From an uncultured Rhizobium sp. (GTDB taxonomy: Bacteria > Pseudomonadota > Alphaproteobacteria > Rickettsiales > UBA1997), in NCBI GenBank assembly GCA_964461905.1, contig CAYWVI010000001.1, forward strand, positions 8,783-72,782: a DNA stretch of 64,000 nucleotides. The letters run 5' to 3'. The position numbers and the translations under genes are program-made. The first letter of the stretch is position 1, and each line of letters begins with the position of its first letter. Shown here in pieces: positions 7,571-51,373 of the stretch. The notes under the pieces were generated by a model, which worked only from the letters and a program-made list of their open reading frames with translations, did not search any database and was not told where the DNA came from.

Positions 7571-10500
7571 CTAAAATCTATGCGTAAATTTAGCTATTCC
7601 AGAGTGAGCTATGTAATTTTGCATTATATCCAAAACATAGTCTAAGCTGAACATATTAGTTTCATTTTTATTGTAATCTACACCGAGTCCAAATCTTATG
7701 GCATATGATCCGTCTTTGTCTGAAAGAGTTGTAAATGACTCTCTTTGACCAATAAAATTTGCCGTAGTTTTTTGCGTTCTATTTAAAAAGTTATAACCGT
7801 AAGAGTTATGAAATCTGTATTTTAGATCATTTGGTTTTTTATAAGAATCATTACGATTTATATTATATCCGATTCTACCTTCTAGGTAGTTATCAGCATT
7901 TCTTCTTACTTCTAAACCAACTGTTCCCGCATCTTTTTCGTGATAAGAATCTGTAGTTCTTTTAACAAAAGTTACAGATATTTCAGGAATAAAATCTAAT
8001 TCTGAGTCTCCTACATTATTATAAACAATACCGCTTCTTAATCTAGCTATGTAGTTAATTCCTGCATATTTTGCATTAGCGGTTTCGCTAACTGAAGGAA
8101 TAATTCTTGAAGATTTATATTTATTCCAAGCAATTCCAGCAACAGCATCCCAAAATATTTTATTATTATAAAATTTTCCGCCGTAAATATTGGCTTGGTA
8201 AGTATCAACATTTACATATCTTAAATTGTTAGAAAATGAAATGCGCGAATTGGAATAACCAAGCGACGCTCCTATTAAAGTATTTTTATTAATTTTTTTA
8301 TCTTTTCCAAAAACAAAACCATCAGCTTTAGAACTATAGCTTAAATCACTTTGTGAGCCATATCTTCTAGCACTAGATCCAAAAATCTCTCCCCAAACTG
8401 CATATTTTTTTTCTTCAACGGATTTTTTATTTTCTTTTAAAGCTAGTTTTTCTTTTTCTCTTAAAACTTTTTTCTCATGAACCTTTAATGTCAAAGCATC
8501 AACCTCTAAACATGAACAAGAATTTTCATCATATTGATCTATTATTCTGACTTTACTTTTGATATTTTTATTTTTTTCAGCCGCTACAGACAAACAAAAT
8601 CTTAAAGCTTCACCTTCATAGTCATGATCATCTTTATCATCATACTTAGAACCATCAATTCCAAGATTAACGAATGAATTAAAACGACTATTTGCTGCTT
8701 CAAGATTTTTATGAACAGGAACCATTACCGCTAATTCAATATCTGCATCATTTATTGGAGCAGCTGATCTTAAAGCTTTGGCAATTTCGAAATAGCTAGA
8801 TGATGTATCGATATATTTTTGAAATTTTTCTAAAGTACCATTAGAATCACCACCAACTTCATCAATATTTTCAAAAACCTTTTTTGCAGTTTCATCGTCT
8901 GTAATTTCATCAATTGATACCCTTTCGATATAAACCACTAAATCTTTATATTTTCCTGTGCTTTCAATATAATCACGAGCGGCAGAGTGAAAAGTAAGAA
9001 TACCAATTTTGTTATTACCAAGAGTACCATCGTTGATACTGATATTTGAATCTGCAACAGCCTTAACATCTGATTCCGAAGCATTAGTTGCTGTGTTTTT
9101 GTAATCACCATCAATTACTAAATAATCAACACCGCTTTGTAAGTAAGAATAATTATCAGCAATATTTATGTTTAATCTAACTCCACTTTCAATATTGGTT
9201 TTTCCTGCAAAATTTAGCCTTCCTAAAGCTCCACCATCAGTAAAAGTTGTAGAAATTATTGGGTGAAGACCAGTGCCAGCAAGTATTGAAAGATTTCCCA
9301 ATGCGTCGCTACCATTAGATCCAATTGCATAAGTTTTGGTGCCAATATTAATTCTAGCTTCAGATTTTTCAGTTTTTCTATCAGTTCTTGTATTTATCGA
9401 ACCAATCATGGCATCAGAAGCAAAATCATTATTAAAATTTAAAGTGCCTGCAAGGGTAATATCTCCTGTTACACTTCCGCCATTTAAGTTAATGGTTTGA
9501 GACTTGAGGCTCGTATTAATTTTTCCAACAATTGTTCCATAATTTGTAATCGTACTATTTTCACCTTGTGGTCTGATACTAGAAGCATTCTGACCCGGAT
9601 AGGCAGGATTAGTAACTGCCGTTCCATTCAAAACTTCATAATTGTTATTATCTTTACAGGTATCAGGAAGAGTATCATATGCAGAACATTCTGTAACCAT
9701 GTCAGAACCTGCTATTGGACTAGTTTCAATTCTAATATTACCATTAGATTCATTAGTAATATTAAGGGTTGTATTAAAATCAGAAATTATGTTACCAGCA
9801 CTGATCAAACCTCTATTAGTAATATTAACTTCTGACGTAATATATGCTTTATTTTTATCAAATGTTTCACTAAATACTTTCGCTCCAAACACCATTTGAC
9901 CATAAATCTTTCCCGTAGACTCATTGGTAATAGAAATGTTACTTTTTATTCTACTATTACCACTAGAGTAAAAAGAATTACTGTCAGTAACCCCCGGATT
10001 TGCTGTTAATCTTGGATTTGCAGCAATTATACCTTCATTTCGAACCCTTAAAGTAAGAGTTCCGATAACTCCCGCTTCAGCATTTTCATCAGCTTCATCT
10101 TTTGAGGCACCAGTAAAACTATTATAATTACCAGCACCACCACTACAATTAACTGTATTAGTATCACCCGAACTAACAGCGGGATCTTGATCAATACAAG
10201 CAGCATTGTCATATCTTATTGCAGATCTTGAACCTTGAATAATCCCATCTTTTCCCACGATAATATCGGTTCCACTGCTATCTGAATCTCTTAAAAATAT
10301 AGCAGTATCTGTGCTGTTAATAATACCTGATTTTACTTCTAAAGTTTTGAGATGACCACCAAGCTCTGCAACAATTGCACCTGTTCCTTTGTCTGCAATA
10401 GAAGTATTGATTCCCTCACCTTCATTTGCCTGTACAGTAATTACAGCACCAGAAACTCCATTTGGAATAGAAACCCCAATTGATGCTCTCGTAGTAATGC

Positions 10501-10738
10501 TTACTTGATTAGTAGTGGTGTTAAAGGGAATGGCACCATAAATTCCTGAAAAAATAAGATTTCCACCACGATTAATTAACAATGTTTGGTTGTCTGCCGT
10601 AAAAGTTCTTTTGCACGATGTTAAACCACCAGAACAATCTTCTTCTGAGTTAACTGCAGCAGGATCAGCGAAAGCATTTTGAGAAAATAAAAAGAAAAGC
10701 AATTGAACTGAAATTGCTTTTGAAACTCTTAACAACAT
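7571..10738 (-). CDS. autotransporter (type Va) outer-membrane protein with a large beta-helix-like passenger
   Basis: Signal peptide ending FSQNAFA-DP. The passenger is Asn/Gly/Thr/Ile-rich with recurrent ITNxGxI-type strands. A charged helical linker (KEKLALKENKK) precedes a roughly 280-aa C-terminal beta-barrel region of alternating aromatic strands ending in ...FTHRF. Confidence 0.75.
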   Translation of the reverse strand: MLLRVSKAISVQLLFFLFSQNAFADPAAVNSEEDCSGGLTSCKRTFTADNQTLLINRGGNLIFSGIYGAIPFNTTTNQVSITTRASIGVSIPNGVSGAVITVQANEGEGINTSIADKGTGAIVAELGGHLKTLEVKSGIINSTDTAIFLRDSDSSGTDIIVGKDGIIQGSRSAIRYDNAACIDQDPAVSSGDTNTVNCSGGAGNYNSFTGASKDEADENAEAGVIGTLTLRVRNEGIIAANPRLTANPGVTDSNSFYSSGNSRIKSNISITNESTGKIYGQMVFGAKVFSETFDKNKAYITSEVNITNRGLISAGNIISDFNTTLNITNESNGNIRIETSPIAGSDMVTECSAYDTLPDTCKDNNNYEVLNGTAVTNPAYPGQNASSIRPQGENSTITNYGTIVGKINTSLKSQTINLNGGSVTGDITLAGTLNFNNDFASDAMIGSINTRTDRKTEKSEARINIGTKTYAIGSNGSDALGNLSILAGTGLHPIISTTFTDGGALGRLNFAGKTNIESGVRLNINIADNYSYLQSGVDYLVIDGDYKNTATNASESDVKAVADSNISINDGTLGNNKIGILTFHSAARDYIESTGKYKDLVVYIERVSIDEITDDETAKKVFENIDEVGGDSNGTLEKFQKYIDTSSSYFEIAKALRSAAPINDADIELAVMVPVHKNLEAANSRFNSFVNLGIDGSKYDDKDDHDYEGEALRFCLSVAAEKNKNIKSKVRIIDQYDENSCSCLEVDALTLKVHEKKVLREKEKLALKENKKSVEEKKYAVWGEIFGSSARRYGSQSDLSYSSKADGFVFGKDKKINKNTLIGASLGYSNSRISFSNNLRYVNVDTYQANIYGGKFYNNKIFWDAVAGIAWNKYKSSRIIPSVSETANAKYAGINYIARLRSGIVYNNVGDSELDFIPEISVTFVKRTTDSYHEKDAGTVGLEVRRNADNYLEGRIGYNINRNDSYKKPNDLKYRFHNSYGYNFLNRTQKTTANFIGQRESFTTLSDKDGSYAIRFGLGVDYNKNETNMFSLDYVLDIMQNYIAHSGIAKFTHRF

Positions 10739-15686: not shown

Positions 15687-15722
15687 ACTTTTGGATTGGG
15701 TTTTAGAACACAATCCAAAAGT
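15687..15722. terminator. stem-loop between convergent genes, possible bidirectional terminator
   Basis: Perfect 12-bp inverted repeat ACTTTTGGATTG / CAATCCAAAAGT with a 12-nt loop, between the kefB-like stop (15674) and the popZ-like stop (15742). No strong T-tract. Confidence 0.4.
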
Positions 15723-15741: not shown

Positions 15742-17502
15742 TTATTCTTTTGGAATCATCTTTTTAATCTCTTCTCTAACAACTTTTTCAACCAAGTCTG
15801 GCAAATTATCGTTAAACCATTTTTCAATTTTTGGTTCCATTAAATGCAAAGCTAACTCTGCAAGAGCTGGACTTTGAGAAAAGCTAGAAATTCCAGAAAC
15901 CACATTTTTGGCATCAACTAATTTTTTTACTGAATCACTTACTTGACGAACAGTTGATTCATATTCTTGTGATTTTACTGGCTGACTAACTAGTTTATCA
16001 CTCTCAAATTTTTGCGATTTTTCTTTTTCCATTGGCATGAAATTCATTGTTGGCTGTGCTTTCAATGGCATTGAAGTTTCAGAGGTATTGGCTGAAAAAC
16101 CCATCAACTCTTTTTCAAATTCAAGATCAATTTCATGTTTTTGAATTTGTGGCTGATTTGAGTCTTCAAGTTTTTTATCCCATAAAATTTCTTGCTCTGG
16201 ATTCGAATTAAACCCTAAAGGATCTAATTCCTTAACTTCTTCTTTAGTGGCTTCAAAAACAGTTTGCTGCTCAATTTCTTCATTTTTTACCTGAGCAAAA
16301 ATATCATCTTCTTGCTCAAGATCTGCAAAATCAAAATCATCCTTGGGCATTTCACTAACTGTTTCTTTTTGTAACTCAGATTTTGGTTCCAATTTTTCTA
16401 AAATATCTAAATCTAAATCGTCAATTTTTGGTTCAGGTTGTTTTAAAAAAGATTGTTCTTCAGTTTTTATAGACATCTTATCATCTTCCAAATGAGCATC
16501 AAAAGATGGTAATTCTTTCGACGAACTTTCCATAGTTTGGTTAACTATTTCTTCTTCCTCCTCAAAATTAGGTAACTCTAAATCATCTTCTTCTAAATCT
16601 TCGTCATGATTATCTTCTTCTTGCTCCTCATGATCTTCTTCATGGTATTCTTCAAAACCCTCTTCATCATCTTCATGATCTTCTAAATCTTCATCATGAT
16701 CATCTTCTTCTTGTTCATCATGATCTTCTTCAAAATTCTCTTCTTCATCTTCATGATCTTCTAAATCTTCATCATGATCATCTTCTTCTTGTTCGTCATG
16801 ATCTTCTTCAAAATTCTCTTCATCATCTTCATGATCTTCTAAATCTTCGTCATGATCATCTTCTTCTTGCTCTTCCTGATCTTCTTCATCTTCATGATCT
16901 TCAGAATCCTCTAACAATTCTTCTTCAGACTCTGATTCTGTAACGGAAGAATTAATTGGATTTCCTAGCCAATCAACAGGCCCAACATCTCCTGCCACAA
17001 CTTGAGAAGTTTTGCCACTAACACCATTATCTTCTACCTCAACTTCATCTTCAGATTTTTCAATTTCTGACACATCTAAAACTGGATCAGGCATTACAAC
17101 AGCTCCAGATTCTTTTCTGGCAGGAGGATTAATTGCGGAAGGTGCAAAAGTTTTTTCTTCATTGTCTAAATCTAAATCATCCAAATTAAAATCTTTGAAA
17201 CTTTCAATTCCTGAAGTTTTTTCCGTAGATTTTTTTATTGATAAATCTTTTTTCTCTTCGAATTTTTCAATGTCTATTCCCAAATCATCTTCAAATTTTT
17301 GATCTACAACTGATGCTACTTCTGCCTTAGATTCTACAGCCTTACTTTTTTTATTATCGCTAGAAGAAATATCTTCAAATTCATCTTCTGAATTAGAATT
17401 AACAACGTTTGGAACCTCTTCTTTTTTCTCAGCTTTTTGATCAAGCTTAAGCATTTTTTTCTTGATAGTTTCTAAAATCGAATGAGTATTTTTTTCTGCC
17501 AT
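15742..17502 (-). CDS. PopZ-like (DUF2497-type) polar-organising protein homologue with a greatly expanded acidic repeat linker
   Basis: C-terminus LAELALHLMEPKIEKWFNDNLPDLVEKVVREEIKKM aligns with my recollection of the Caulobacter PopZ C-terminal domain (LEDVVRELLRPLLKEWLDQNLPRIVETKVEEEVQRI). N-terminal helix SILETIKKKM resembles PopZ MEEILASIRRII. The middle is extremely acidic. Confidence 0.6.
   Translation of the reverse strand: MAEKNTHSILETIKKKMLKLDQKAEKKEEVPNVVNSNSEDEFEDISSSDNKKSKAVESKAEVASVVDQKFEDDLGIDIEKFEEKKDLSIKKSTEKTSGIESFKDFNLDDLDLDNEEKTFAPSAINPPARKESGAVVMPDPVLDVSEIEKSEDEVEVEDNGVSGKTSQVVAGDVGPVDWLGNPINSSVTESESEEELLEDSEDHEDEEDQEEQEEDDHDEDLEDHEDDEENFEEDHDEQEEDDHDEDLEDHEDEEENFEEDHDEQEEDDHDEDLEDHEDDEEGFEEYHEEDHEEQEEDNHDEDLEEDDLELPNFEEEEEIVNQTMESSSKELPSFDAHLEDDKMSIKTEEQSFLKQPEPKIDDLDLDILEKLEPKSELQKETVSEMPKDDFDFADLEQEDDIFAQVKNEEIEQQTVFEATKEEVKELDPLGFNSNPEQEILWDKKLEDSNQPQIQKHEIDLEFEKELMGFSANTSETSMPLKAQPTMNFMPMEKEKSQKFESDKLVSQPVKSQEYESTVRQVSDSVKKLVDAKNVVSGISSFSQSPALAELALHLMEPKIEKWFNDNLPDLVEKVVREEIKKMIPKE
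16591..16905 (-). repeat. in-frame 78-nt (26-aa) tandem repeat inside the PopZ-like gene
   Basis: Units 16681-16758 and 16759-16836 differ at only 2 of 78 positions by my comparison. More diverged copies lie at 16591-16680 and 16837 to about 16905. The unit encodes DHDEDLEDHEDDEENFEEDHDEQEED. Confidence 0.85.
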
Positions 17503-22802: not shown

Positions 22803-23912
22803 CTAAAATCTGTAAAGATAGTTCATCAAAACACCAACAATTGATCCAGAGTAACCATCTTCTTTCATGTTTGATCTACTAATATCTAAAGTAAGGCGTT
22901 CTGTAAATTTATATCCAACTGAAAGCTGTGCATGACTAGCCTTTCCTTCTTTTTGTAATCTATGACTACTTGGATCACGAGATAAGTAAGAAAAACTTCC
23001 TGTCCAACTGCTATATTTAAGAATCAAAGCCGCAGTTTTATGAAGTGAATTACGACCTTGCTCTCCATCAATGCTAGTTACTTTTACTATTTCAATGAAT
23101 GGAATAACCGAAGTTTCACCAATTTTATAAAGATATTCTGAACCAAAAACATAACCTTTTTCACGTTGTCTTCCCGGCAATCTATTAACACTCAAGCTTT
23201 TAAAGCCAATATTGTAACTCCAATCTTCAATTTCAAAAAAGTCTTTCCCTTCAAGAGCCACTGAATAAGAATTTAAAGATTTTGTAGAGCCAGCAGAACC
23301 ATCTTTACTACTAGCATATCCTCTATTATCTAAAGCACTTCCACTTAAACCAGTAGTATCATTAAAAAATGAATTAACTGTTATTTTGCTTTTTTCTAAC
23401 AAGGCAGAAAGAGATACACCAATTTTTTCTCTTAGGTTATAATCTTCTGTAAATTGTGATGTAAATACACCCATTCTTTTTTTCTTATCATGAGCAGTTC
23501 CAAACTTTGGATCAAATTTACCTGCTGAAAACTGCATATCTTCATTTTGGAATTGTAGTTTTAATTCTTCAACTAACAGACCATATCCAGATGCTTTAAT
23601 ACCGCGATCTGAATCTAAAAAAGTTCTATACCTTTCTGGATATTCACCATTTCTGGTTGTTAATACATCATTTTGTTGCAATCTCCACTGAGTTTTAACT
23701 GCCCAATTTCTGTCAATATTTAAACCAAAATCTGATTCTACATAACCAAAAGCATTATTGGGTGAAACTCCAGTTTTGGTAGTTGATAAAACTCGATCAG
23801 CACTTAATTGAAATAATGCAGTTCCAGAAATATTAGGATATTGCCCAGCAGCGTATGAATTAGTTAAAATCAAAACAGAAAATAAAACGACTTGTGGTAA
23901 AAATTTATTCAT
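22803..23912 (-). CDS. outer-membrane beta-barrel protein (porin-like), family not recognised
   Basis: Signal peptide (VLILTNSYA-AG), alternating amphipathic strands throughout, and the C-terminal OMP signature ...NYLYRF. Confidence 0.5.
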   Translation of the reverse strand: MNKFLPQVVLFSVLILTNSYAAGQYPNISGTALFQLSADRVLSTTKTGVSPNNAFGYVESDFGLNIDRNWAVKTQWRLQQNDVLTTRNGEYPERYRTFLDSDRGIKASGYGLLVEELKLQFQNEDMQFSAGKFDPKFGTAHDKKKRMGVFTSQFTEDYNLREKIGVSLSALLEKSKITVNSFFNDTTGLSGSALDNRGYASSKDGSAGSTKSLNSYSVALEGKDFFEIEDWSYNIGFKSLSVNRLPGRQREKGYVFGSEYLYKIGETSVIPFIEIVKVTSIDGEQGRNSLHKTAALILKYSSWTGSFSYLSRDPSSHRLQKEGKASHAQLSVGYKFTERLTLDISRSNMKEDGYSGSIVGVLMNYLYRF

Positions 23913-28477: not shown

Positions 28478-28999
28478 TTATTTTAACTTCTTCAAGAGTA
28501 ACGGCTCAATTTCTTCAACAGTTTTTATAAAAAAATCACGATTAAACAAGTCACGATGCGGGATTTGCAGATTGTCACCAAGATCAATTTTCAAATCTTG
28601 TATTAGCAAAATATCAATATCAATTTCACGCGGTGCCCATTTTCCACGATCTTTTCTACCAATATTTTTTTCTATTTCTTTGATTATTTGTAGAATTTTT
28701 TGGGGCGGAAATTTTTGCAGATCAATGTCGGCTGCAAAAGCAATATTAAAAAATTCTACATCCCATTCTGGTGGTGAATTTGGCAAAAGTAGTGCGGGAT
28801 TTTTAAAGATTTTTGATATTTTAGTATCAGTTAAAAATAATTGATTTGTAAGTTCTAACTCTGCTTTTTCTAAATAAACATTACGATCACCAACGTTTGA
28901 ACCAATTCCAAAAACAATGCGTTTCTTTTTTTGTTGTATTTTAACCAATTGGTTGAGAGATGCGCGAACTTTTAGCTGCGCCAGAATTTTCATTAACAA
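28478..28999 (-). CDS. folK: 2-amino-4-hydroxy-6-hydroxymethyldihydropteridine diphosphokinase
   Basis: GSNVGDR near the N-terminus, REIDIDILL, and IPHRDLFNRDFF. The true start is uncertain: ATG 28999 or 28993, or a TTG near 28948 that would just overlap the upstream stop. Confidence 0.8.
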   Translation of the reverse strand: MLMKILAQLKVRASLNQLVKIQQKKKRIVFGIGSNVGDRNVYLEKAELELTNQLFLTDTKISKIFKNPALLLPNSPPEWDVEFFNIAFAADIDLQKFPPQKILQIIKEIEKNIGRKDRGKWAPREIDIDILLIQDLKIDLGDNLQIPHRDLFNRDFFIKTVEEIEPLLLKKLK

Positions 29000-29771
29000 C
29001 TTTCTGTAGAATTTTAATTTGATAATTTTGCTCTAAGTCTTGAGCATCTAAAACAATATTATTTAAACAATCAGATAAATTAGTTTTTTGATGTTCGCTT
29101 AAATTTTTAGCAAGATTGCTAAATAACGTTTCAATTAACTTTTCGCTATTTTTAGTTAGATCAACTATTTGAGAAATAAAATTTCTAAATGCTGTTTGCT
29201 CAGTAATTTCACTTGAACGCATTGAAATAATAACACGATCTAACTGTTCATCTTTAGACTTATTACAATTCATAACTGCAAGTAAAATTGCTTTTTCTGT
29301 TGTGTTGATTCTTTCATCTCCATCCCAAATATTTTCAGGAGTTTTTGAAGAAATTTTATTAATTTTAGCAATAACTCGAAGAAACTTTTCCTGCAAAAGC
29401 ATATGACCACTCTCTTGCAAACCACTACTTAAATTTGTTAGATTTACAGCTCCAATTTTCATTGATGGAGTTGGTTTGCAAGTAGCATTGTAAATAAAAC
29501 TAGCAAAATTTTTTGGTAAAAATTTTGTGATTCTTTTTAATCTTTTTTTATCACCATAAATAACTTCTACTTCTTGATAATTTTCTGTCTCTTTAATGAT
29601 ATTAATTTCAAGACGATTTTGATTATTTTCTTTTTGCCTTAAAGCATTATCTTCTTCTTTCGAATTAGAAACATCTTTTGAATCAAGAGAAAAAGGATTA
29701 TTCAAATTAGGTTTTTGTAGCTGATTTTTCTTTATTTCTAAGTCCATCTGTAAGTTAATTTTGTTATACAA
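28941..29771 (-). CDS. hypothetical protein (about 270 aa, no recognisable domain)
   Basis: Long ORF with the same codon style as its neighbours, an Asn/Lys/Glu-rich N-terminus, and no TM segment or signal peptide. Start is TTG 29771 or ATG 29747. Confidence 0.5.
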   Translation of the reverse strand: MYNKINLQMDLEIKKNQLQKPNLNNPFSLDSKDVSNSKEEDNALRQKENNQNRLEINIIKETENYQEVEVIYGDKKRLKRITKFLPKNFASFIYNATCKPTPSMKIGAVNLTNLSSGLQESGHMLLQEKFLRVIAKINKISSKTPENIWDGDERINTTEKAILLAVMNCNKSKDEQLDRVIISMRSSEITEQTAFRNFISQIVDLTKNSEKLIETLFSNLAKNLSEHQKTNLSDCLNNIVLDAQDLEQNYQIKILQKVVNENSGAAKSSRISQPIG

Positions 29772-32398: not shown

Positions 32399-32485
32399 GC
32401 CTCTGTGGCGGAATTGGTAGACGCGATAGACTCAAAATCTATTGTCCCTTGGGACGTGTCCGTTCGATTCGGATCGGAGGTACCA
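32399..32485 (+). tRNA. tRNA-Leu (anticodon CAA), class II with long variable arm, CCA encoded
   Basis: Hand-folded cloverleaf. Acceptor stem GCCTCTG/CGGAGGT; D arm GCG...CGC; anticodon stem ATAGA/TCTAT with loop CTCAAAA; variable stem GTCC/GGAC; T arm GTCCG-TTCGATT-CGGAT; discriminator A followed by CCA. Confidence 0.93.
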
Positions 32486-33306: not shown

Positions 33307-34437
33307 ATGCAACAAGAAAAATTCGCCATCAGATTTGGACTTGGAGCTATTAAAGCCGTAGGTTTTAATATGATGGAAAATGCTGTTGAAGAACGAAAAA
33401 ACAATGGTGAATTTTCTGATATTTATGATTTTGCACAACGTTTAAACCCTCGCTCAATTAATAAAAAGTCAATCGAGGCTTTAGCCAAAGCGGGAGCTTT
33501 TGACTCTTTAGAAAAAAATCGTCGTCAAGTTTCAGAATCTTTTGATATTTTATCTGCCTACTCAACAGAAAAAAATGAAGAAGCAAATTCAAATCAAATG
33601 AGTCTTTTTGGCGGCTTGGCTGAAGCGCAAAAAAAACCCGAATTAAAAAAGATTTCTAATTGGAACAAATCAGAACGTTTGCAAAAAGAATTTGAAGCTT
33701 TTGGATTTTTTTTAAACGAACACCCAATTGATGATAATTTATCTGAATTAAGAAAACGCGGCGTAATTTTTTCTGATAAACTTGAGCGTGATGAATTAGA
33801 GGATGGTGATTTAGTAAAAATGGCAGGAGTTGTTGCTGGAAGCAAACATCGCTCAGGACCTCGTGGACGTTTTGCTTATTTAACAATTTCTGATCCTTTG
33901 GGAATTTTTGAAGCAATGATTTTTGATGAAGGATTAATCACTTCAGCACGAGATATTTTAATTGATGGCAGCGTTATTTTGTTGGAATGTTTAATAAAAA
34001 AAGATGATGGCGGAGTTAGAATTTTGGTGCGTGAAGTAAAAAGATTAGAAGATTTTATTCAAAATACCAAAGCTCAAGATAAGGATTTTGAAGACATAAA
34101 AAAACAACCGCAAAGAAATTATAATCGCAACAAAGATGCAAATTTTGCTAAAAAAGAATCCACTCCCAATAAACAAGTTGAAGTTGCGCCAATAAAAAAA
34201 GTTCTTTCAAAAGTAGAAATTTTTATCAAATCAAGAGAACCAATTTTTAGCATTAAAGCCTTTCTTTCTCAACGTTTATCAAGTAATGACTCTGCAATCA
34301 CTACCTCTGTTTTTTTTGCAATAATTGATGGTCAAAAAATTACTAAAGTTGAGTTGCCTCAAAAATATCTTCTTGATGAATTTGATGTTTCAAAGCTTGC
34401 TCAAATTAATAAAGTGATTGATGTAAAATCACTTTAA
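33307..34437 (+). CDS. dnaE: DNA polymerase III alpha subunit, C-terminal third only (HhH, clamp-binding motif, OB fold, C-terminal domain); stand-alone fragment or gene remnant
   Basis: IRFGLGAIKAVG (HhH region), QMSLFGG (internal beta-clamp-binding motif), EFEAFGFFLNEHPID, and OB-fold VKMAGVVAGSKHR...RFAYLTISD are collinear with roughly the last 345 residues of E. coli DnaE. A stop lies two codons upstream of the ATG, and no PHP, palm or fingers part is in the window. Confidence 0.8.
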   Translation: MQQEKFAIRFGLGAIKAVGFNMMENAVEERKNNGEFSDIYDFAQRLNPRSINKKSIEALAKAGAFDSLEKNRRQVSESFDILSAYSTEKNEEANSNQMSLFGGLAEAQKKPELKKISNWNKSERLQKEFEAFGFFLNEHPIDDNLSELRKRGVIFSDKLERDELEDGDLVKMAGVVAGSKHRSGPRGRFAYLTISDPLGIFEAMIFDEGLITSARDILIDGSVILLECLIKKDDGGVRILVREVKRLEDFIQNTKAQDKDFEDIKKQPQRNYNRNKDANFAKKESTPNKQVEVAPIKKVLSKVEIFIKSREPIFSIKAFLSQRLSSNDSAITTSVFFAIIDGQKITKVELPQKYLLDEFDVSKLAQINKVIDVKSL

Positions 34438-42448: not shown

Positions 42449-43828
42449 ATGAAATATGTTGTTTACGGTCTTGGAATTTCTGGAATTGCCACGGCAAAAT
42501 TTTTAATCACCCATGGCGAAAAAGTTATTGCCACTGACGACAATTTAAAAGTAGTTGAAGATTCAAAAGAGAAATTTCCAAACATAGATTTCTTAAATCC
42601 AGAAGAAATTGAATATGATTCAAGCACCGTAATAAGCCTCTCTCCGGGAATTCCCTTATATTTTCCAAAACCTCATAAAGTTTTAGAAATCGTTAGAAAA
42701 ACTGGCGCAAAACTTTCTTGCGATATAGAGATTTTTTATAAAAAAAATTCTCAAAATAACTTCATCGCAATTACAGGAACCAACGGCAAATCAACAACAA
42801 CCGCATTATCTGGTTTTATTTTTAAAGAATTAGGAATTGCCTCAGACATTGGCGGAAACATTGGAGTTCCTTGCTTTGACTTACCTCAAAACCAAAATAA
42901 TTTTTCTTATATTTTTGAAACTTCTTCTTATCAGCTCGACCTACTTAACGAAACTCACTTTAAAATCGCAGCACTTTTAAATATAACTCCCGATCACATT
43001 GATCGACACGGATCAATTTCTGGATATATCGAAGCTAAAAAAAGAATTTTTAGAAATCAGACTTTGGGAGATTTTGCTTTAATTGACGTTGATAATGAAA
43101 ATTCAAAAAAAGTTTTTGATGAATTAAAAAATGACAAAAACTTTCGCGCCACTCTTGTTCCAATTTCAACAAATAAAATTCAGGAAAATGGAATTTCGCT
43201 TGTTGAGGGAATTTTAGCCAACAACATTTCTGGCTCTAAATCGCAATTTGAGTTAAAATCAGATTTTTTGCGCGGTCAGCACAATGATCAAAACATGGCT
43301 TTTGCTTTTGGAATAGCCTATTGCCAATCTCTTTTTCAAAAAGAATTCCAAGAAACAAAAATTATTTCTGCCATAAAAAAATTCAAAGGATTGCGCCATA
43401 GAATGCAGCTACTTGGAGAAATTGATGGCATAAATTTTGTTAATGACAGCAAAGCAACAAACGCCGAATCAACCGAAAATGCTTTAAAAGCTTATGATAA
43501 TATTTTTTGGATTTTGGGCGGAGTTCAAAAAGAAGGCGGAATCAAAAGTTTAGAACCTTATTTTAATAAAATTCAGAAAGCTTATTTGATTGGTCAGGCA
43601 AGCGATGAATTTGCAAAAACTTTATCAGCACATTCTGTAAATTTTGAAAAATGCACCGATTTAAACACCGCTTTTAAAAAAGCTTTTTTGGATGCAAAAA
43701 CAATTAGCTTATCTCAAAAAAATATTTTACTTTCGCCAGCCTGCGCATCATTTGACCAGTGGAAAAACTTCGAACAGCGCGGTGATTACTTTTGCAAATT
43801 ATTTGATGAAGTTTACCCAAAATCTTAA
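42449..43828 (+). CDS. murD: UDP-N-acetylmuramoylalanine--D-glutamate ligase
   Basis: Mur ligase P-loop ITGTNGKSTT, DSKATN motif, 459 aa. No other dcw-cluster genes are adjacent. Confidence 0.9.
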   Translation: MKYVVYGLGISGIATAKFLITHGEKVIATDDNLKVVEDSKEKFPNIDFLNPEEIEYDSSTVISLSPGIPLYFPKPHKVLEIVRKTGAKLSCDIEIFYKKNSQNNFIAITGTNGKSTTTALSGFIFKELGIASDIGGNIGVPCFDLPQNQNNFSYIFETSSYQLDLLNETHFKIAALLNITPDHIDRHGSISGYIEAKKRIFRNQTLGDFALIDVDNENSKKVFDELKNDKNFRATLVPISTNKIQENGISLVEGILANNISGSKSQFELKSDFLRGQHNDQNMAFAFGIAYCQSLFQKEFQETKIISAIKKFKGLRHRMQLLGEIDGINFVNDSKATNAESTENALKAYDNIFWILGGVQKEGGIKSLEPYFNKIQKAYLIGQASDEFAKTLSAHSVNFEKCTDLNTAFKKAFLDAKTISLSQKNILLSPACASFDQWKNFEQRGDYFCKLFDEVYPKS

Positions 43829-46800
43829 CAAAATAACAGTTTCAAAAAAAGTATTAAAACGCTTAACCATTTTTTGCGCTTTATCTTTGGGAATTTTTGC
43901 AATTTTTCACGCTCCAAAAAATCTCTCTTCTGCAACATTAAATTATGATTGCGCTCTTCTTGCTGATAATGTTACTGCTGCTCCCGGTTCAAACTGTCTT
44001 TTTAGCGCAATGTCAAAAGATGGTTCAAATGTTTTGCCTTTATGCCGAGAAATTCCTTCTGTTAACTATACAATATCATCTGACAATATTTTACTAAATG
44101 GCGTTAGAAGACATACATGCTCTAACTTAAGCGACTTACCACTTTGCTCAACTTTTAGGGATAGTAGTAATAATTTAACCACTTCAGTTGAGCCAAAAGC
44201 TGGAAAAAATTGTGCTCCTCTTTGCGATAATAGCTTTAATGGAAGCGGAACAAGAGGAGTTGATTATGCAATTCATAATCGTGATTGCATAAGATTTTGT
44301 GATGCCATGGAAGCCGGAACAGAAAGTGCTAATCCAAATATAAATTGTGTTGATCGCAAATGTCATCAGCTTGCAAGTGGAACAACACCAGTTCCAGACA
44401 CCAATTGTTCTTTAATGCCATGTAATCTTCTAACACCATCAGAATTATCAAATGTATCTAAGAGAATTTATGACGACAAAATAGCTGCAAGAACAGTTGG
44501 TAAATACTGTGAAGGACAAACTGACATCTACAACTCACCTCTAAAATGCTATAAATTTAACAAAGATCAGCTTGATTACGTTGTTTTGCCAGAAATTTGT
44601 TCTATACATAACTGCCCTCCTCCATGCGAAAATTATACTTCAAATATTGATACAGATGGAGATGGCTTAATCAATCAATATGACAATGACGAAACTTTAA
44701 ATATTTCTGATCGCAATAGAGATGGTGTTACAGATAGTGATAACAGTTACAGAGAAAAATACAAAACAACGGTAAATGCAGGCTACGAGCTAAACTCAAC
44801 TTCTTATTGCAAGCCAATTTACTGCAAACCAGTAATAAAAAAACAATATCGCTGTGTTAATAATAACGGAGAAATCACAGGAAATAATAACAATGATATA
44901 TATAGAAATAGTAACTGCGATTCATCTGGAGATGGAGCATTATGCGCAAGTAATCTTTGCTATAAAACCATTGATTGCAACTTATCATCAAATGATAACA
45001 AGCCTGAATGTTATGTAGCAGATGATGGATCTATTGGCTCCACCGAAGATACTGTAAATTCATGGTTTTACCGTCCGAGACCATTACATAAAGCAACAAG
45101 AGTTTCTGGATCTGTGCGATTAATAGAAGACATGGAAAGAGGACTTTGCTATACGCAAAACCAGATGAAATCTAGGCGCGATAATTTTGACAATGGTGAA
45201 GCTTTTGACAATGGACGAGGCTCAACATCTGAAGATGGAAAATGGGGTTTAGATATGACAATTAGAATTCCGCTTGGACCAGGTCTTGGATCAATTATTA
45301 TACCTATTGGTTGGTTTCATAGCACATTACTTCCTGATGAAACCAGATCTCCAAAAGCATGCGGAGTTGAAGAAGTAAATACACGTGGAACTGGTTACAT
45401 GTATTTATGCTATGGAGATGGTAATCCTAATTCAGGAACTCTCTATGCCAAAGTTGCAGATCACACAGTTTTTCATAGCGGATATATCAAAACATCTTTC
45501 TCAGAAGGAGATGCAATACATAAGCTTAACCTTTGTTTTAGATTTAGAAACTCTTTTAGACCAGATGATGGCACTTCAGAAACCTGTGGTTCTAGACAGT
45601 GTGGAATTTCTTATGCATTTGGAGAAGGAACCACACAAAACTGCGGATTAGATAGGTGCTTTGATCTGGAGATTTCAGATTCAAATCCAGCCGAATGCGA
45701 AATGGATAGCACTATTTCTGAAGGTGATAGAAGTAGAAGATGTATGAAAACTTATGATACTTATCTAAGACTTAGAATTCAAAAATATGGCAATCGTAAA
45801 ATATGCAGCTTTTTGGATGTTAAAGGACAAACAGCTTATGATAATGGAAGCTCTGCTAGTAGCTTATTTATGAAAGGATCTGAGAAATTTTCTGATGGAT
45901 CTTGTGTTATTGGATCAAAAAGTGGTTCTGGAAATTGTTCTGGATTTAGTAGCTATACAGATCCAACTTTAGCAGAAGTATGGCGCACAATCAAATTTGG
46001 ATCATCTGGCAATATACCATACATTAAAAATAACCAAGTTGATAGTAATGGAACTCAATTACCTGGAAATCTAAAAGGATATTTTGATTTAGAAGGACAA
46101 TTCTTTCCAGAACAAGAATGTATTTATGCCCCACTTCGTACCCCTCCTCCTAGAATATATAATCTTGCTACAATTAACAACTCTACCCGACTTTTTACCC
46201 CTCCAGTTTATATATTAAATGCCATGACTAAAGCTGGATCTGGATTAATATCTCCTAGAGGTTTTGGTGAAAGTTTTGGAGTAACAGATTTTAATTACCC
46301 AGCAATTCAGGTAAATTTTGGCAACACAACTTCTGAAATCAGCCTAGATGCTGGAAAAACTGGCTATGAAGAAAATAGAACTATCAAAACTCTAACCACA
46401 ACAGCTAATCAAAATAATTACTCTGTAAATGTCTTCGTTCGCAAAGAGTTTAACGAAAGTAGCAAAAAACCAACTTTTTGTCTCTATCGCCAAGTAATAG
46501 ATATTAATGGTGTTGAAATTAGACCCGAAAGAATTGGCTGTGTTGAAAGAAAATTACCTGAAATTTACAACTCAACAACTCAACAAAAAGCTGTTATTTA
46601 TCTTGATCCTTCAAGCACATTCAACAGCTCAAAAATTGCCATAAAATTTATGGCTGGATTTGGAGCTGATAATATTGATAGCAACTGTCTTGCTGGAAGT
46701 GATGATATATGCAGCCCTGCAATTAAATTTGAAAATCCAAATTCAACTGTTCCAAATTGCAATTCTGCAATAGTTGATCCTACCGACCTAACAACAATCT

Positions 46801-49757
46801 CTCCTGAAATGTATAATCTTTGCGCAAAACGCGAAGAATGTAGTCAATTAAATGTTGAATGCATGCAAAATGAGATCGACCTACAAGCAGCCAGAGTTGC
46901 TGGTAATAGTGTAGATTCTTATTTAACAGTACGCGATCGTTGCAACAACTTCTTACTCCCTTTATGTAATGCCAAAAAAGGAATCACTGGTCTTGGCGGC
47001 ACATTAACTAATCCAAATCCAAATAACGAAGTTATAAGCCCAACAGCTTATGGATGGTTTAATGAAATTTGCTTTATTTCGGGAGACACAACCAACAGCT
47101 TTGATTCTCATTTAAAACAAGTGTTAGCTTATAAAACCAGTCCAGAAGGTGTTAAAGGAAAATGCATTACAATTGAAGGAGCAAACCAATGTCCAAATGG
47201 TGGTAAAGCTCCAAATTGTAATTGTATTATAGCTAATGAGAACACAGTTATTGATGCAGATAAAGAAGTAAGAACTCAAACTAATAGAGAAGCTGGATTA
47301 TGTGTTGATATGCCTCTACCGCAAACCTGTTCAGCAATAGATTATAACCCTCTTTCAACAATTCCAAGTGACCCTGAGTACTTATACTCATCTCTCAATT
47401 TTACCTCTTACGGCGCAACTCAAAATAATGTAAATAACGTTGTTCATATCTCTCATCAAACAAGAAAAAATGCGACTTCAAATGGCAATGCTGAATTTCC
47501 CATTGCTATTCTTGGCTCAGTTAACATTTCAGGAGCTTGTAATGGTTTTTGGAAAAATAGCATTTCACCTACTACAGGAATTGCCACTCCACCAACAAGA
47601 ACTTGCTTAAATAACAATGGTAACGCTGTTTGGGATACATTAGTAAACAATCCTTGCATCAGATATTCATGCGAAGCAAAAAATACTACAGGAGCAGAAT
47701 CAGAAATAATTGGAGCTAACTATCAAGGCGGTTATGCATCAACTGAAGTTGGAGATAATAAAGGTTCTGCAGATGGATTTGCAACTTGGCCAACATTAAC
47801 AAAAACAACGGATTTTCCAGAAAGTGCCAACGCAATATCTTGCATTCCGGGATTTAAAAAAATTGGATCAACAGCTACAACTTCTGGCACACCAATTAAT
47901 ACTTATCAAACCCAAATAAATGGATATTCTGGAGGAACAACACCAACCAGAGCATGCAATCAAGTTGGTGCTTGGCAAACTCCTGTTAACTCTTGTCAAA
48001 GAATAACTTGCCCAGCTATCAATCCACCAAGCAATCCCACCACTTCTGCTGATTGGGTAAAATGGTACGATGCTGGAGGAGCAAATTATCCACAAACCAA
48101 TGCTTCTAGAAGCACTTCATCTGGAATAGTAGCAATTGGAACGTGCAACACCTCTCTTGGCTTTTATAATCTTGGCGACCCACCAACTCGCAGATGCGAT
48201 TATCTAGGAAATTGGGGTCCAGTTGTTAATCCATGCACTACAAAATGCGATGCAATAACCGCGCCATTTGCCTCTGGATCAAATAACGGTAACGCAACTT
48301 GGGCAGAAACAATTATACCAAATGGATCAGTTGAAGTTGCTGGAACATTTGGTCAATGCCTTAATGGATATGTTCCTTATCCTTACCCACCACTAAAAAA
48401 TAAATATGGAAAATCTTATGATTTTGCACTCGGCAGCATCACAAATTACAGCGTTCCTGGGGTAAACCTAGTTGCTGGATCAGCTGATTACGTAAATTCA
48501 ATACCTCTTGATGTTTCATTAGATGGAACTCAAACCGGAAGAACACCCGGAAATCCAGTTAAATATTGTCGAGCAGTAAGTCATGACGGCATCGTTGTTA
48601 ATAATTGGGCAGCAGCTAATTCTTCCTGCATCGCTGGCTGCCCCGGATATGGGGATGATCCAAGAGTTGGGGTTGGTGTCACTCAACATCCAACAAGAAA
48701 TGGTAAAATTAGCATTAAATGGCCAAATGCAGAATTTGGAACTTGGTATTACATCAGCAGTAGTGACACCATTGGAACTCCAGATTTAAACACTGCAGAA
48801 TTTTTTGGACAAACAGCTGCCGATTTCTCCGAAGGTAGAACCAACAATTCTTATTTACTTGCCAGATTCTGTGGTGATGGAGTTAACAATGGATCAGTAA
48901 AAGGAAAATGGAATGATCCGGTTCCGCAATGCGTTACAAATGGCGGCATTATAACTCAAAATGGAGTTAGCAGTCATGCAACTTATGATACTAGCAGCCC
49001 TCGCAATGGTGTACCGGGTACAGCATCAAAAACCGTAAATATTGGTGACACAGCAACATCAACAACTTGTAGAACAGATGGCAGCTACTACCCTACAGGA
49101 AGCAACACTACTCCTGTCGCAATATCAAGCTATCAATGTATTTACAAATCTGGTAGTTCTAACATTGATGAAATCTATTTTCATCAAGTTGGGGGATCAC
49201 CATGCCAAGTTTATTGCCGACCTCCAGCTAACGATGCTCTATTCAATAATAGCAAATATACTGGAACCCCTGCCGCTCCACAATATACCCAAGTTGGTGG
49301 AACTCTAAATCTTGGCGGATGTCAAAATGGCTATGGCAAAGCGAATGATTCTGACCCAAACACATCTGATAGCTCTTGTGGCAGAAGTAATACTAACAGA
49401 GGTGCCACACCAGTTGTGACCTGTAAAGATAGTGGGCTTTTTGGAGATGTTCAAAATAATTGCACAGCTTGTGCAAATTGCACTGGTGCCGCAGCTGATA
49501 TTTTGTATAATCGCGTTTGTATACGCATAAATTGCAGCGGAGATGATGACCAAGTATTTATGATAAATGACGATAACCGAGCTGATTCTGGTTGTGGAAA
49601 CCCTGGTGATACTACTCTTAAAGTCAATTTTGGTGATTGTAACCATAATCAAACTGGTTGTAGTAGAACATTTACTGGAAATCAGTGTAAACATGCGAAG
49701 CTTGAATATTCATGCAAAGATGGACTGATGTCGAAAGATGTTTTTGAAGCTTATTAA
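43806..49757 (+). CDS. giant secreted cysteine-rich protein (about 1,983 aa) with a TSP3-like Ca-binding stretch and sushi/CCP-like C-terminal modules; function unknown
   Basis: Uninterrupted 6-kb ORF. I use ATG 43806, since the tracked start at 43692 lies inside murD. Sec-type N-terminus KKVLKRLTIFCALSLGIFAIFHA. About 93 Cys by manual count, and no other hydrophobic segment. Confidence 0.8.
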   Translation: MKFTQNLNKITVSKKVLKRLTIFCALSLGIFAIFHAPKNLSSATLNYDCALLADNVTAAPGSNCLFSAMSKDGSNVLPLCREIPSVNYTISSDNILLNGVRRHTCSNLSDLPLCSTFRDSSNNLTTSVEPKAGKNCAPLCDNSFNGSGTRGVDYAIHNRDCIRFCDAMEAGTESANPNINCVDRKCHQLASGTTPVPDTNCSLMPCNLLTPSELSNVSKRIYDDKIAARTVGKYCEGQTDIYNSPLKCYKFNKDQLDYVVLPEICSIHNCPPPCENYTSNIDTDGDGLINQYDNDETLNISDRNRDGVTDSDNSYREKYKTTVNAGYELNSTSYCKPIYCKPVIKKQYRCVNNNGEITGNNNNDIYRNSNCDSSGDGALCASNLCYKTIDCNLSSNDNKPECYVADDGSIGSTEDTVNSWFYRPRPLHKATRVSGSVRLIEDMERGLCYTQNQMKSRRDNFDNGEAFDNGRGSTSEDGKWGLDMTIRIPLGPGLGSIIIPIGWFHSTLLPDETRSPKACGVEEVNTRGTGYMYLCYGDGNPNSGTLYAKVADHTVFHSGYIKTSFSEGDAIHKLNLCFRFRNSFRPDDGTSETCGSRQCGISYAFGEGTTQNCGLDRCFDLEISDSNPAECEMDSTISEGDRSRRCMKTYDTYLRLRIQKYGNRKICSFLDVKGQTAYDNGSSASSLFMKGSEKFSDGSCVIGSKSGSGNCSGFSSYTDPTLAEVWRTIKFGSSGNIPYIKNNQVDSNGTQLPGNLKGYFDLEGQFFPEQECIYAPLRTPPPRIYNLATINNSTRLFTPPVYILNAMTKAGSGLISPRGFGESFGVTDFNYPAIQVNFGNTTSEISLDAGKTGYEENRTIKTLTTTANQNNYSVNVFVRKEFNESSKKPTFCLYRQVIDINGVEIRPERIGCVERKLPEIYNSTTQQKAVIYLDPSSTFNSSKIAIKFMAGFGADNIDSNCLAGSDDICSPAIKFENPNSTVPNCNSAIVDPTDLTTISPEMYNLCAKREECSQLNVECMQNEIDLQAARVAGNSVDSYLTVRDRCNNFLLPLCNAKKGITGLGGTLTNPNPNNEVISPTAYGWFNEICFISGDTTNSFDSHLKQVLAYKTSPEGVKGKCITIEGANQCPNGGKAPNCNCIIANENTVIDADKEVRTQTNREAGLCVDMPLPQTCSAIDYNPLSTIPSDPEYLYSSLNFTSYGATQNNVNNVVHISHQTRKNATSNGNAEFPIAILGSVNISGACNGFWKNSISPTTGIATPPTRTCLNNNGNAVWDTLVNNPCIRYSCEAKNTTGAESEIIGANYQGGYASTEVGDNKGSADGFATWPTLTKTTDFPESANAISCIPGFKKIGSTATTSGTPINTYQTQINGYSGGTTPTRACNQVGAWQTPVNSCQRITCPAINPPSNPTTSADWVKWYDAGGANYPQTNASRSTSSGIVAIGTCNTSLGFYNLGDPPTRRCDYLGNWGPVVNPCTTKCDAITAPFASGSNNGNATWAETIIPNGSVEVAGTFGQCLNGYVPYPYPPLKNKYGKSYDFALGSITNYSVPGVNLVAGSADYVNSIPLDVSLDGTQTGRTPGNPVKYCRAVSHDGIVVNNWAAANSSCIAGCPGYGDDPRVGVGVTQHPTRNGKISIKWPNAEFGTWYYISSSDTIGTPDLNTAEFFGQTAADFSEGRTNNSYLLARFCGDGVNNGSVKGKWNDPVPQCVTNGGIITQNGVSSHATYDTSSPRNGVPGTASKTVNIGDTATSTTCRTDGSYYPTGSNTTPVAISSYQCIYKSGSSNIDEIYFHQVGGSPCQVYCRPPANDALFNNSKYTGTPAAPQYTQVGGTLNLGGCQNGYGKANDSDPNTSDSSCGRSNTNRGATPVVTCKDSGLFGDVQNNCTACANCTGAAADILYNRVCIRINCSGDDDQVFMINDDNRADSGCGNPGDTTLKVNFGDCNHNQTGCSRTFTGNQCKHAKLEYSCKDGLMSKDVFEAY

Positions 49758-49781: not shown

Positions 49782-50264
49782 ATGACAATAATCTCAATTA
49801 TCATGGGCAGCAAATCAGACTTTGCTACCATGCAACATACTTGCCAAATTCTTGAAGATTTTGGTGTAAAATTTGAAACCAAAGTTGTTTCAGCACATCG
49901 CACTCCAAAAAGACTTTATGATTTCTGTGAGTTAGCAAAAAAAAGAGGGATAAAAATTATAATAGCTGGAGCTGGAGGCGCGGCGCATTTACCGGGAATG
50001 GCAGCTGCAATTACTGATTTACCTGTTTTGGGAGTTCCTGTTGAAAGTCGCGCGCTAAAAGGATTGGATTCTCTTCTTTCAATTGCCCAAATGCCTGCGG
50101 GAATTCCAGTTGGATGTCTAGCAATTGGAGAGGCTGGAGCAAAAAATGCTGCACTTTTGGCAATTGCTATACTTGCAATAAGCGATGAAAAACTAGCTAA
50201 AAAACTAGAAAAATTCCGTCAAAAACAAACTAAAGACGTTAAAGAAACAATCACAAAACATTAA
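49782..50264 (+). CDS. purE: 5-(carboxyamino)imidazole ribonucleotide mutase
   Basis: 160 aa with [14 protein letters not shown] and [10 protein letters not shown] motifs. Confidence 0.92.
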
Positions 50265-51373
50265 ACTTCGTTATATATTCTATTATCACGACGATCTAAC
50301 TTTTCAGCTCTAACTCCGGCATTAGTTTGTTTTTTTTCATATGTCTCTTCTTCATCTACACCACCTATAACCTTTTCACTGTTATTACGACAGCACAAAT
50401 AACTTATAGCTCCACCACAAATTGTTAAAAAAATTCCAGCTCCTAGCAAATATACATAAGGCTTATCAGGATCCCACCATTGATCATTTTCACTATTTGC
50501 TTGATAGATAACGGTATCGTTAGTTGCAATAGAAGGAAACATCGATGGTGATATCGATGGTGATGGCGATGGAGGATTTGTAGGACTATTAGTTGAAGCT
50601 AAGGTGTTAAGAATTGTTGGAATGAGAGTAGAAGGAGACAATGTTGGCATCAAACTCTCAGCAAGAGTTGGATTTAAAGTCGGAAAAAGAGTTGGAAAAA
50701 TAGATGGATTCAATGTTGGAGAAAAAGTTGGAGGACAAACAATATTAGGATCTCCATTACATTGAGCAGCAACTTCTCTTGAAATAAGATTCAAAAATAC
50801 AGCCAAGAAAAGCAAAGCTTTATAGGCAGAGCCAGAAATTGATTTATCACCAACAGAAATATTTTCATTTTCTATTTTAAATTCTTTTTGCAAGCTCTCT
50901 GCTGAAGAACCTAAAGCCACAATCATCTCTTCCTTCTTAAGACCAATTCCACAATAATCATCGGATTTAAATCTTTTTATTAAATCTTCTTGCTGTTTTT
51001 CAGCTAGCTTCGGGTAAACTTCTTTTAAAACCTCTCCCATTTCAAGAGGATTTGGACTAACGCCCTGACCTTTTTCCCAGTTTTTTGAAAAATATTGCTT
51101 TTCTTCATTAGTTAAAGAAAAGAACCATTCTAAATGACATTTTGCTTTTTCTTTAGCACTAAGATTAAGATATTCGTCTTTTGCTAAATCTAATGTTTTA
51201 TCCTTTGATCCAAGAGTAATATCATCTTTAGATCTAAGAATTGGACTTGGATTTTTTTCTTTTAAACCAACTGAAATATCATCACTAGATTCAGATTTGG
51301 AAATATAATTATGATTAGCCGCAAATTCCAAAAGTTTTGTTGGAGTATATCCTAAATTCTGAGGTTTTTTCAT
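50261..51373 (-). CDS. hypothetical membrane protein with Pro/Thr/Ser-rich stalk and C-terminal TM anchor
   Basis: 370 aa. A soluble N-terminal region of about 185 aa is followed by an internal hydrophobic segment ([15 protein letters not shown]), then PT-rich short repeats ([19 protein letters not shown]...[13 protein letters not shown]...[11 protein letters not shown]), a TM segment ([23 protein letters not shown]) and a charged tail. Confidence 0.55.

Follow-up and report, generated by a model that had tools for sequence, protein, structure and literature searches.

PopZ of Caulobacter crescentus is the leading bacterial model for how a disordered linker sets the material state of a condensate. 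Its demixing in vitro requires divalent cations (PMC9512792), and condensation depends on both divalent cations and pH (PMC9512792; PMC12999525). A 2026 structural study explains the effect of the intrinsically disordered region (IDR) by an electrostatic repulsion around hexamers that Mg2+, salt or low pH can relieve (PMC12999525). Doubling the IDR (IDR-156) raises the saturation concentration and mobility of PopZ, lowers its partitioning and mislocalizes condensates in Caulobacter (PMC9512792). In the survey by Lasker et al. 2022, IDR length is tightly kept within Caulobacterales (93 +/- 1 aa) but differs between orders, the natural spread of linker length across alphaproteobacterial orders is wide, and naturally longer linkers have a lower charge fraction; the five orders highlighted there do not include Rickettsiales (PMC9512792). 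Here we describe a popZ-like gene in a 64,000-nucleotide stretch of contig CAYWVI010000001.1, which we refer to as the window. Judging from sequence comparison and structure prediction, its 586-aa product would be the PopZ-family pole-organizing scaffold of an uncultured, low-GC alphaproteobacterium, labelled Rickettsiales in its public records, working by the Caulobacter mechanism and carrying a linker typical of its clade, a reading to which we assign a probability of roughly 0.7.

More than 160 relatives share the two ends of the protein (MAEKNT at the N-terminus, IPKE at the C-terminus), which fixes the start and stop of the gene. The strings quoted in the original prediction, which was made from the letters of the DNA alone, were all recovered in this open reading frame (ORF): SILETIKKKM at aa 8-17, LAELALHLMEPKIEKWFNDNLPDLVEKVVREEIKKM at aa 547-582 and DHDEDLEDHEDDEENFEEDHDEQEED at aa 216-241. 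We rejected the idea that the ORF is an artefact; the antisense ORF at 17012..17302 (+) lies wholly within the low-complexity region and is unsupported.

That the protein belongs to the PopZ family is very likely, and much of the evidence lies in its C-terminus. The Pfam profile PF10691 (DUF2497) matches aa 516-583 over profile positions 7-74 of 75, with 45 bits against a gathering score of 27 (E = 1.5e-11), and this was the search that the original prediction had named beforehand as able to refute it. A profile of 45 relatives was compared by hhalign with Caulobacter PopZ alone and with a 24-sequence Caulobacter PopZ profile; aa 544-583 aligned with Caulobacter 133-172 at a probability of 92% (E ~5e-7, 40 columns). 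A C-terminal hidden Markov model (HMM) built from the clade scored Caulobacter PopZ at 33 bits (E = 2e-12 for a single comparison, Z=1). A word-index search with the C-terminal 91 aa gave only four short fragments, which went into a C-terminal profile. The C-terminal 40 residues are 30% identical to those of Caulobacter PopZ. With BLASTP, aa 554-582 align with Caulobacter 143-171, so that the comparison with alphaproteobacterial PopZ proposed in the original prediction places P557, W562 and F563 on P146, W151 and L152. P557 and W562 are invariant across the 45 clade relatives. In Caulobacter, the P146A mutant is stuck as a trimer, and W151 and L152 stabilize the trimeric H3H4 coiled coil (PMC12999525). 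The Caulobacter reference given in the original prediction was sound: its aa 1-133 are identical to PDB 6XRY (“Polar organizing protein Z”), and over its full length it shares 97% identity with a Caulobacter genome’s 178-aa protein that bears the name PopZ. A phmmer search of the whole protein against the PDB gave no meaningful match.

The predicted structure has the PopZ layout of H1, IDR, H2, loop and H3H4, matching the order of parts (N-terminal helix, acidic linker, DUF2497 helices) in the 177-aa Caulobacter protein (aa 1-133 in PDB 6XRY). AlphaFold2, run with a 45-sequence alignment, places a helix at aa 2-25, a low-confidence chain from aa 27 to about 505, and an H2-like helix at aa 511-542 separated by a short break from an H3H4-like helix at aa 545-582. 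Block-mean predicted local distance difference test (pLDDT) values in this C-terminal part are 67-94. The pLDDT is below 50 for 425 of the 586 residues, nearly all of them in the linker (aa 26-510), within which only short helices are predicted at aa 397-406 and 458-466. The N-terminal helix is the most conserved part after the C-terminus, with K4, T6, S8, I9, L10, I13 and K16 invariant in the 45 relatives. The protein as a whole contains 198 Asp and Glu residues (33.8%), 58 Lys and Arg and 16 His, and its net charge is -140; its isoelectric point of about 4.1 is that of Caulobacter PopZ as well. Within the linker the acidic fraction is 0.37, the net charge per residue -0.29 and the Pro content 4%, and mean hydropathy lies well under the Uversky boundary. 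The extremely acidic, disordered middle that the original prediction described is thus borne out.

Several results weigh against the assignment of a Caulobacter-type role. The NCBIfam model PopZ_fam (NF052660) scores only 23.3 bits (E = 1.2e-4) against a cut-off of 125, in an alignment limited to model positions 45-164 of 167 on aa 453-581; the protein is therefore filed in the broader DUF2497/PopZ family as a divergent long-linker clade. The N-terminal helix lies in register with Caulobacter H1 (ILETIK over ILASIR, aa 9-14 on 13-18), but the match is weak: an N-terminal HMM scores -1.3 bits against H1, hhalign gives P = 0.017, and 35 of 2,000 shuffled sequences score as well. The full-profile hhalign comparison with Caulobacter PopZ found the C-terminal match and none at the N-terminus, and the helix has a net charge of +2, compared with -5 in H1. 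Homology of the two helices is only suggestive, so of the two PopZ/DUF2497-like termini originally proposed, the C-terminal one is firmly supported and the N-terminal one only in this weaker sense. The last residues, IPKE, differ from the SRGRGA of Caulobacter PopZ, six residues that are required for filaments (PMC12999525). In Caulobacter (locus L049) the gene order is PCMT, a tolC-like OEP gene, popZ (DUF2497) and valS, an order that the popZ-like gene does not share; no shared synteny lies behind positional orthology with canonical popZ. The linker, Pro-poor and bearing conserved motifs, may be more than a spacer. Finally, the search for paralogues covered the 64-kb window alone; there, clade N- and C-terminal HMMs run on 1,187 six-frame fragments found no second DUF2497-like or H1-like ORF.

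Much of this would also fit a DUF2497 protein outside the pole-organizing role, an oligomerizer that multimerizes a polyanionic chain and thereby serves as a brush for crowding or exclusion in the cytoplasm, as a reservoir of cations or as scaffolding for other partners. The opposite charge and non-significant homology of the N-terminal helix, the lack of synteny, the score below the PopZ_fam threshold, the different filament-forming tail and the conservation of five linker motifs across 45 relatives are all consistent with such a protein. We nevertheless regard it as distinctly unlikely, because the H1/IDR/H2-H3H4 order and the assembly-critical residues are retained, the N-terminal helix occupies the equivalent position and shows an identical IL..I(K/R)(K/R) hydrophobic face, and the window holds no other PopZ candidate. 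A further argument comes from Rickettsia massiliae, of the order that the records of the clade name. Its PopZ, which carries DUF2497 and was tested in E. coli and Caulobacter, recruits the ZitP zinc-finger domain and supports bipolar ZitP localization in E. coli (Berge et al. 2016, PMC5182065). This makes PopZ-type behavior plausible for distant low-GC relatives.

The linker of the window protein differs from that of Caulobacter PopZ in several respects. At 485 aa it is 6.3 times the length of the 77-aa Caulobacter IDR, somewhat more than the five-fold difference first proposed, and its net charge is -140 compared with -20. Net charge per residue is similar (-0.29 and -0.26), the acidic fraction is higher (0.37 compared with 0.27-0.29), and Pro is far scarcer (4% compared with 30%). 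The window protein also has a hyperacidic 130-aa block with 12 His, whereas Caulobacter PopZ is without any His, and its clade, unlike Caulobacter PopZ, has conserved short motifs inside the linker.

The long linker is clearly a lineage trait, and the window protein is typical of its clade, not extreme. A word-index search with the whole protein returned 68 proteins of 395-921 aa, all with PF10691, and several of these already bear the JGI name “cell pole-organizing protein PopZ” or the NCBI name “DUF2497 domain-containing protein [Rickettsiales bacterium]”. When Caulobacter PopZ was the query, the matches listed were Caulobacter-like proteins of 153-191 aa, with no intermediates that would connect the N-termini of the two groups. 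An exhaustive C-terminal profile search of 1.84 billion cluster representatives gave 1,372 proteins at E<=1e-3 (144 at E<=1e-10), of which the best 150 are mostly 350-770 aa long. A set of 165 relatives from Rickettsiales-labelled MAGs (metagenome-assembled genomes), mostly of lakes, was counted as complete because N-terminal motif and C-terminal domain are both present. Their lengths have a median of 494 aa, run from 358 to 672 aa over the 5-95% range and reach 921 aa at most; the set mixes 90% and 50% identity clusters and is phylogenetically unbalanced. Within it, the length of the window protein is at the 85th percentile, its acidic fraction at the 94th and its His content at the 87th. The description of the protein as three times the usual size therefore stands relative to Caulobacter and falls relative to its own relatives, and that of the linker as a natural extreme is not upheld.

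Being both long and highly charged, the window linker opposes the trend of length-charge compensation reported for PopZ (PMC9512792). Within the clade, linker length and charge fraction are weakly correlated (Spearman -0.19, p 0.017, uncorrected for phylogeny).

Near its middle the linker contains a hyperacidic block that is 70% Asp and Glu, has no Lys or Arg, and is 9.2% His, holding 12 of the protein’s 16 His. All 12 fall within aa 203-299 and are spaced in a recurring 7/11/8 pattern, the regularity in which the original prediction had seen a likeness to metal-binding sequences. The block includes a tandem repeat array (Tandem Repeats Finder: period 78, 3.2 copies, 93% matches, score 436) that is far beyond chance. 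In the protein, the copies occupy aa 215-240, 241-266 and 267-292 and are followed by a decayed partial copy. Copies 1 and 2 are 96% identical at the nucleotide level, and copy 3 is 86% identical to both. The 26-aa repeat was not found in the close homologues (P0002-P0008) or in the protein of L001, the locus from the nearest genome; each of the close homologues has an acidic block at the same position, of other sequence and length. The His-bearing repeat is therefore a recent, lineage-specific expansion, and the even His spacing arises because three His positions were copied about 3.3 times by duplication of the 26-aa unit.

The alternative that follows from the His pattern is a dedicated metal-binding (Zn/Ni/Ca) or pH-sensing module that gates assembly or buffers cations. 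Its appeal lies in the 12 His packed into a 97-aa stretch of a block free of Lys and Arg, and in the mechanistic plausibility that the cation- and pH-dependent condensation of PopZ (PMC9512792; PMC12999525) lends to cation binding by the linker. Across 166 relatives, moreover, His makes up 3.2% of hyperacidic blocks compared with 1.3% of the rest of the linker, about 2.5-fold more (7.7% compared with 1.7% when only non-acidic residues are counted), and Lys and Arg are depleted in these blocks. This enrichment ignores shared ancestry, and the His-rich relatives cluster near the window protein. Furthermore, among the 88 relatives that possess a sizeable hyperacidic block, 30 lack His there; clade linkers have a median His content of 1.2%, and a single base substitution in a GA-rich tract turns Asp (GAT) into His (CAT). 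Neither the repeat nor its His positions occur in the closest homologues even though neighboring genes are 86-96% identical, which leaves a conserved, dedicated metal site unsupported. Searches of Pfam, NCBIfam and the PDB gave no match to a metal-binding family or to anything outside DUF2497. The sarcoplasmic histidine-rich Ca-binding protein also has tandem repeats that mix long Asp/Glu runs with His. That likeness is compositional only; no sequence relationship is detectable, and the His positions here are unconserved. We consider a dedicated module improbable; the His/acidic tract may have a modest pH or cation effect. The 130-aa tract without Lys is notable, because Glu becomes Lys by a single transition and the genome is AT-rich. 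This suggests selection for an uninterrupted polyanion in which His, Gln, Asn, Leu and Phe are tolerated.

Repeat number, and with it the length of 586 aa, could also be an artefact of short-read assembly of a gene that is itself real. The source is apparently a metagenome-assembled contig, all of the relatives come from metagenome-assembled genomes (MAGs), and the array amounts to about 250 bp of units that are 86-96% identical. The popZ-like gene is often broken at contig ends in MAGs: loci L012 and L047, from a single bin (CAIYMZ01), hold its C- and N-termini apart, and L003 and L043 are also broken. Such breakage suggests that acidic repeats disrupt short-read assemblies and that published lengths and repeat numbers for the family may be unreliable. 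For the window gene this explanation seems rather unlikely, as the array keeps the reading frame open throughout and its copies have diverged at several positions, an aid to assembly; one copy more or less would change no conclusion.

The linker evolves far faster than the termini or the neighboring genes, as the comparison with L001 indicates. Protein identity is 96% over aa 1-25, 59% over aa 26-188, 23% (with 47 gaps) over the hyperacidic block, 39% over aa 319-510 and 92% over aa 511-586. The genes nearby are 86-96% identical at the protein level, and dxr, further away, is 72% identical. Against this background five acidic-hydrophobic motifs stand out in the alignment of 45 relatives. D109 in motif 2 and E148 and E151 in motif 3 are nearly invariant. 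These motifs look like short linear interaction motifs and are, to us, the most interesting feature that the original prediction missed.

A stronger proposal can be built on these features, in which the linker is no longer passive but forms a polyanionic arm of about 500 aa with at least five docking motifs, a block free of Lys and Arg and, in the sub-lineage of the window protein, titratable His. Such an arm would recruit multiple clients, gate assembly by cations and protons, and break the length-charge rule. We think this unlikely. In the Caulobacter-type mechanism that we favor, the N-terminal helix would dock client proteins, and the polyanionic linker would envelop the core in negative charge and so work against assembly. 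Once cations, salt or low pH screen this charge, assembly could proceed, so that the linker would set how readily and how densely the scaffold condenses. That condensate properties of PopZ are tuned by the length and charge of its linker, as the original prediction stated, is found in the literature (PMC9512792). A linker with seven times the Caulobacter charge would be much harder to condense unless other contacts compensate, and extrapolation from about -140 charges per chain, compared with about -20 in the Caulobacter IDR, would lead us to expect an assembly that is more cation-dependent, more dilute and more fluid. The linker itself probably evolves through slippage at GA-rich acidic codons and their duplication, with selection acting on composition and the His-bearing 26-aa repeat as the latest expansion, and the five motifs are probably extra docking or self-interaction sites. 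The features discussed here are collected in Table 1.

Table 1. Positions of the popZ-like gene, its predicted parts and the adjacent hairpin in the window.
Feature	Position	Strand	Basis
PopZ-family coding sequence, complete	15742..17502	-	ATG start, 586 aa plus stop codon; ORF list
N-terminal amphipathic helix, H1-like, presumed client-binding, aa 2-25	17428..17499	-	AlphaFold block-mean pLDDT 70-85
Acidic disordered linker, aa 26-510, 485 aa, net -140	15973..17427	-	pLDDT, charge, hydropathy
Linker motif 1, EFEDIS, aa 41-46	17365..17382	-	Mean column identity 0.77, 45 relatives
Linker motif 2, FNLDDLDLDN, aa 105-114	17161..17190	-	Mean column identity 0.72; D109 nearly invariant
Linker motif 3, acidic, DVSEIEKSEDEVEVED, aa 143-158	17029..17076	-	Mean column identity 0.60, group conservation 0.78
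Hyperacidic block, aa 189-318 (130 aa)	16549..16938	-	Composition, net -91
78-bp tandem repeat array, encoding the 26-aa unit DDHDEDLEDHEDDEENFEEDHDEQEE	16636..16888	-	Tandem Repeats Finder
Linker motif 4, DFADLEQE, aa 391-398	16309..16332	-	Column conservation; overlaps predicted helix 397-406
Linker motif 5, EIDLEFEKELMGF, aa 457-469	16096..16134	-	Mean column identity 0.76; predicted helix 458-466
C-terminal DUF2497/PopZ oligomerization domain, aa 516-583	15754..15957	-	PF10691, AlphaFold, hhalign
Hairpin, candidate two-way terminator	15687..15722	.	16-nt arms, 94% complementary, 4-nt loop; repeat search

Scanning the clade alignment against one genome per GTDB species identified 48 loci, all 48 from MAGs and mostly from lakes (Zurich, Rimov, Erken, Baikal, Tanganyika, Mendota). 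The taxonomy of the clade rests on the titles of these records, which read Rickettsiales, Alphaproteobacteria, “Rickettsia typhi” or “Rhizobium sp.” L001 (CAYVKI010000001.1) and other lake MAGs whose genes are 86-96% identical to those of the window have titles such as “uncultured Rhizobium sp.” and “Rickettsia typhi”. For a freshwater lineage with 33% GC these two titles are evidently wrong and look like automatic mislabels. The window itself is about 33% GC and encodes dxr, DAHP synthase, ubiG, purD, purF and purE, prephenate dehydratase, topA and clpB, with genes for purine, aromatic amino-acid, isoprenoid and ubiquinone synthesis. Given this biosynthetic gene set, the organism would not be a strongly reduced, obligate intracellular Rickettsia.

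In the window, and likewise in 35 of the 48 MAG loci, cstA and the popZ-like gene form a divergent pair, and the same pairing is found on a 954-kb contig with a 462-aa relative. The MAG REEB439 has two cstA and popZ-like loci on separate contigs (L026 on JAGWWH010000006 and L027 on JAGWWH010000002). We rejected these as proof of paralogy, since each has its own cstA copy and a mixed bin is equally likely. On its other side, the popZ-like gene of the window lies tail to tail with a kefB/C-like gene, and the 67-bp gap between the convergent genes contains the hairpin, which possibly serves both as a terminator. A scan for consensus terminators reported none and missed this hairpin because its stem is AT-rich; a scan for consensus promoters was uninformative, with 3 promoter-like sites compared with 7.3 expected.

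Other parts of the window contain several less familiar genes. A 2021-aa ORF at 43692-49757 (+) matches no Pfam family at E<=1e-5 and lies where the window is richest in GC (0.41 compared with about 0.33). Its product abounds in Asn, Ser, Gly and Thr, has Cys residues dispersed along it and begins with a hydrophobic segment, and resembles a giant protein of unassigned family that is secreted or exposed at the surface. On the opposite strand, a 1055-aa ORF at 7571-10738 (-) is probably an autotransporter-type outer-membrane protein, its C-terminal 280 residues resembling the EprS autotransporter model at 38.6 bits, far below the cut-off. A weak relative of it (34% identity) lies near the popZ-like gene in locus L005. 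The 376-aa ORF at 33307-34437 (+), which stands alone directly after the uppP/bacA gene, has only HHH_6 and an OB-fold (tRNA_anti-codon), as in the C-terminal end of DnaE, and could represent dnaE in split or truncated form, or else a protein of its own. The sole RNA gene found in the window, tRNA-Leu(CAA) at 32399-32485 (+), overlaps the TTG start (32449) of the listed bacA ORF; the true bacA start must therefore lie further downstream. Four further ORFs of 276-486 aa, all on the reverse strand (22803-23912, 50261-51373, 53927-55387 and 28941-29771), match no Pfam family at E<=1e-5. The first of them, with 369 aa, recurs at 68-69% identity in MAG loci L002-L004, next to a histidine kinase.

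Parts of this picture are already known: relatives are annotated as PopZ or DUF2497 proteins, and natural variation in linker length has been published. In the searchable literature on PopZ with Rickettsiales or DUF2497, we found no account of the long-linker clade, its conserved linker motifs or its departure from the length-charge trend. Taken alone, the message of the single gene is modest: its product is recognizably a PopZ homologue, of a size usual in its clade, and the His pattern arose as a side effect of a repeat. The clade has a wider meaning. Published tests of PopZ linkers reach only about twice the natural Caulobacter length, and the clade is a natural series of linkers, the middle 90% of about 260-580 aa, with a longest protein of 921 aa and net charges to about -200. 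This series could be used to probe length-charge compensation and cation gating far beyond the range studied so far, and the conserved motifs within these linkers are candidate new client-binding sites.

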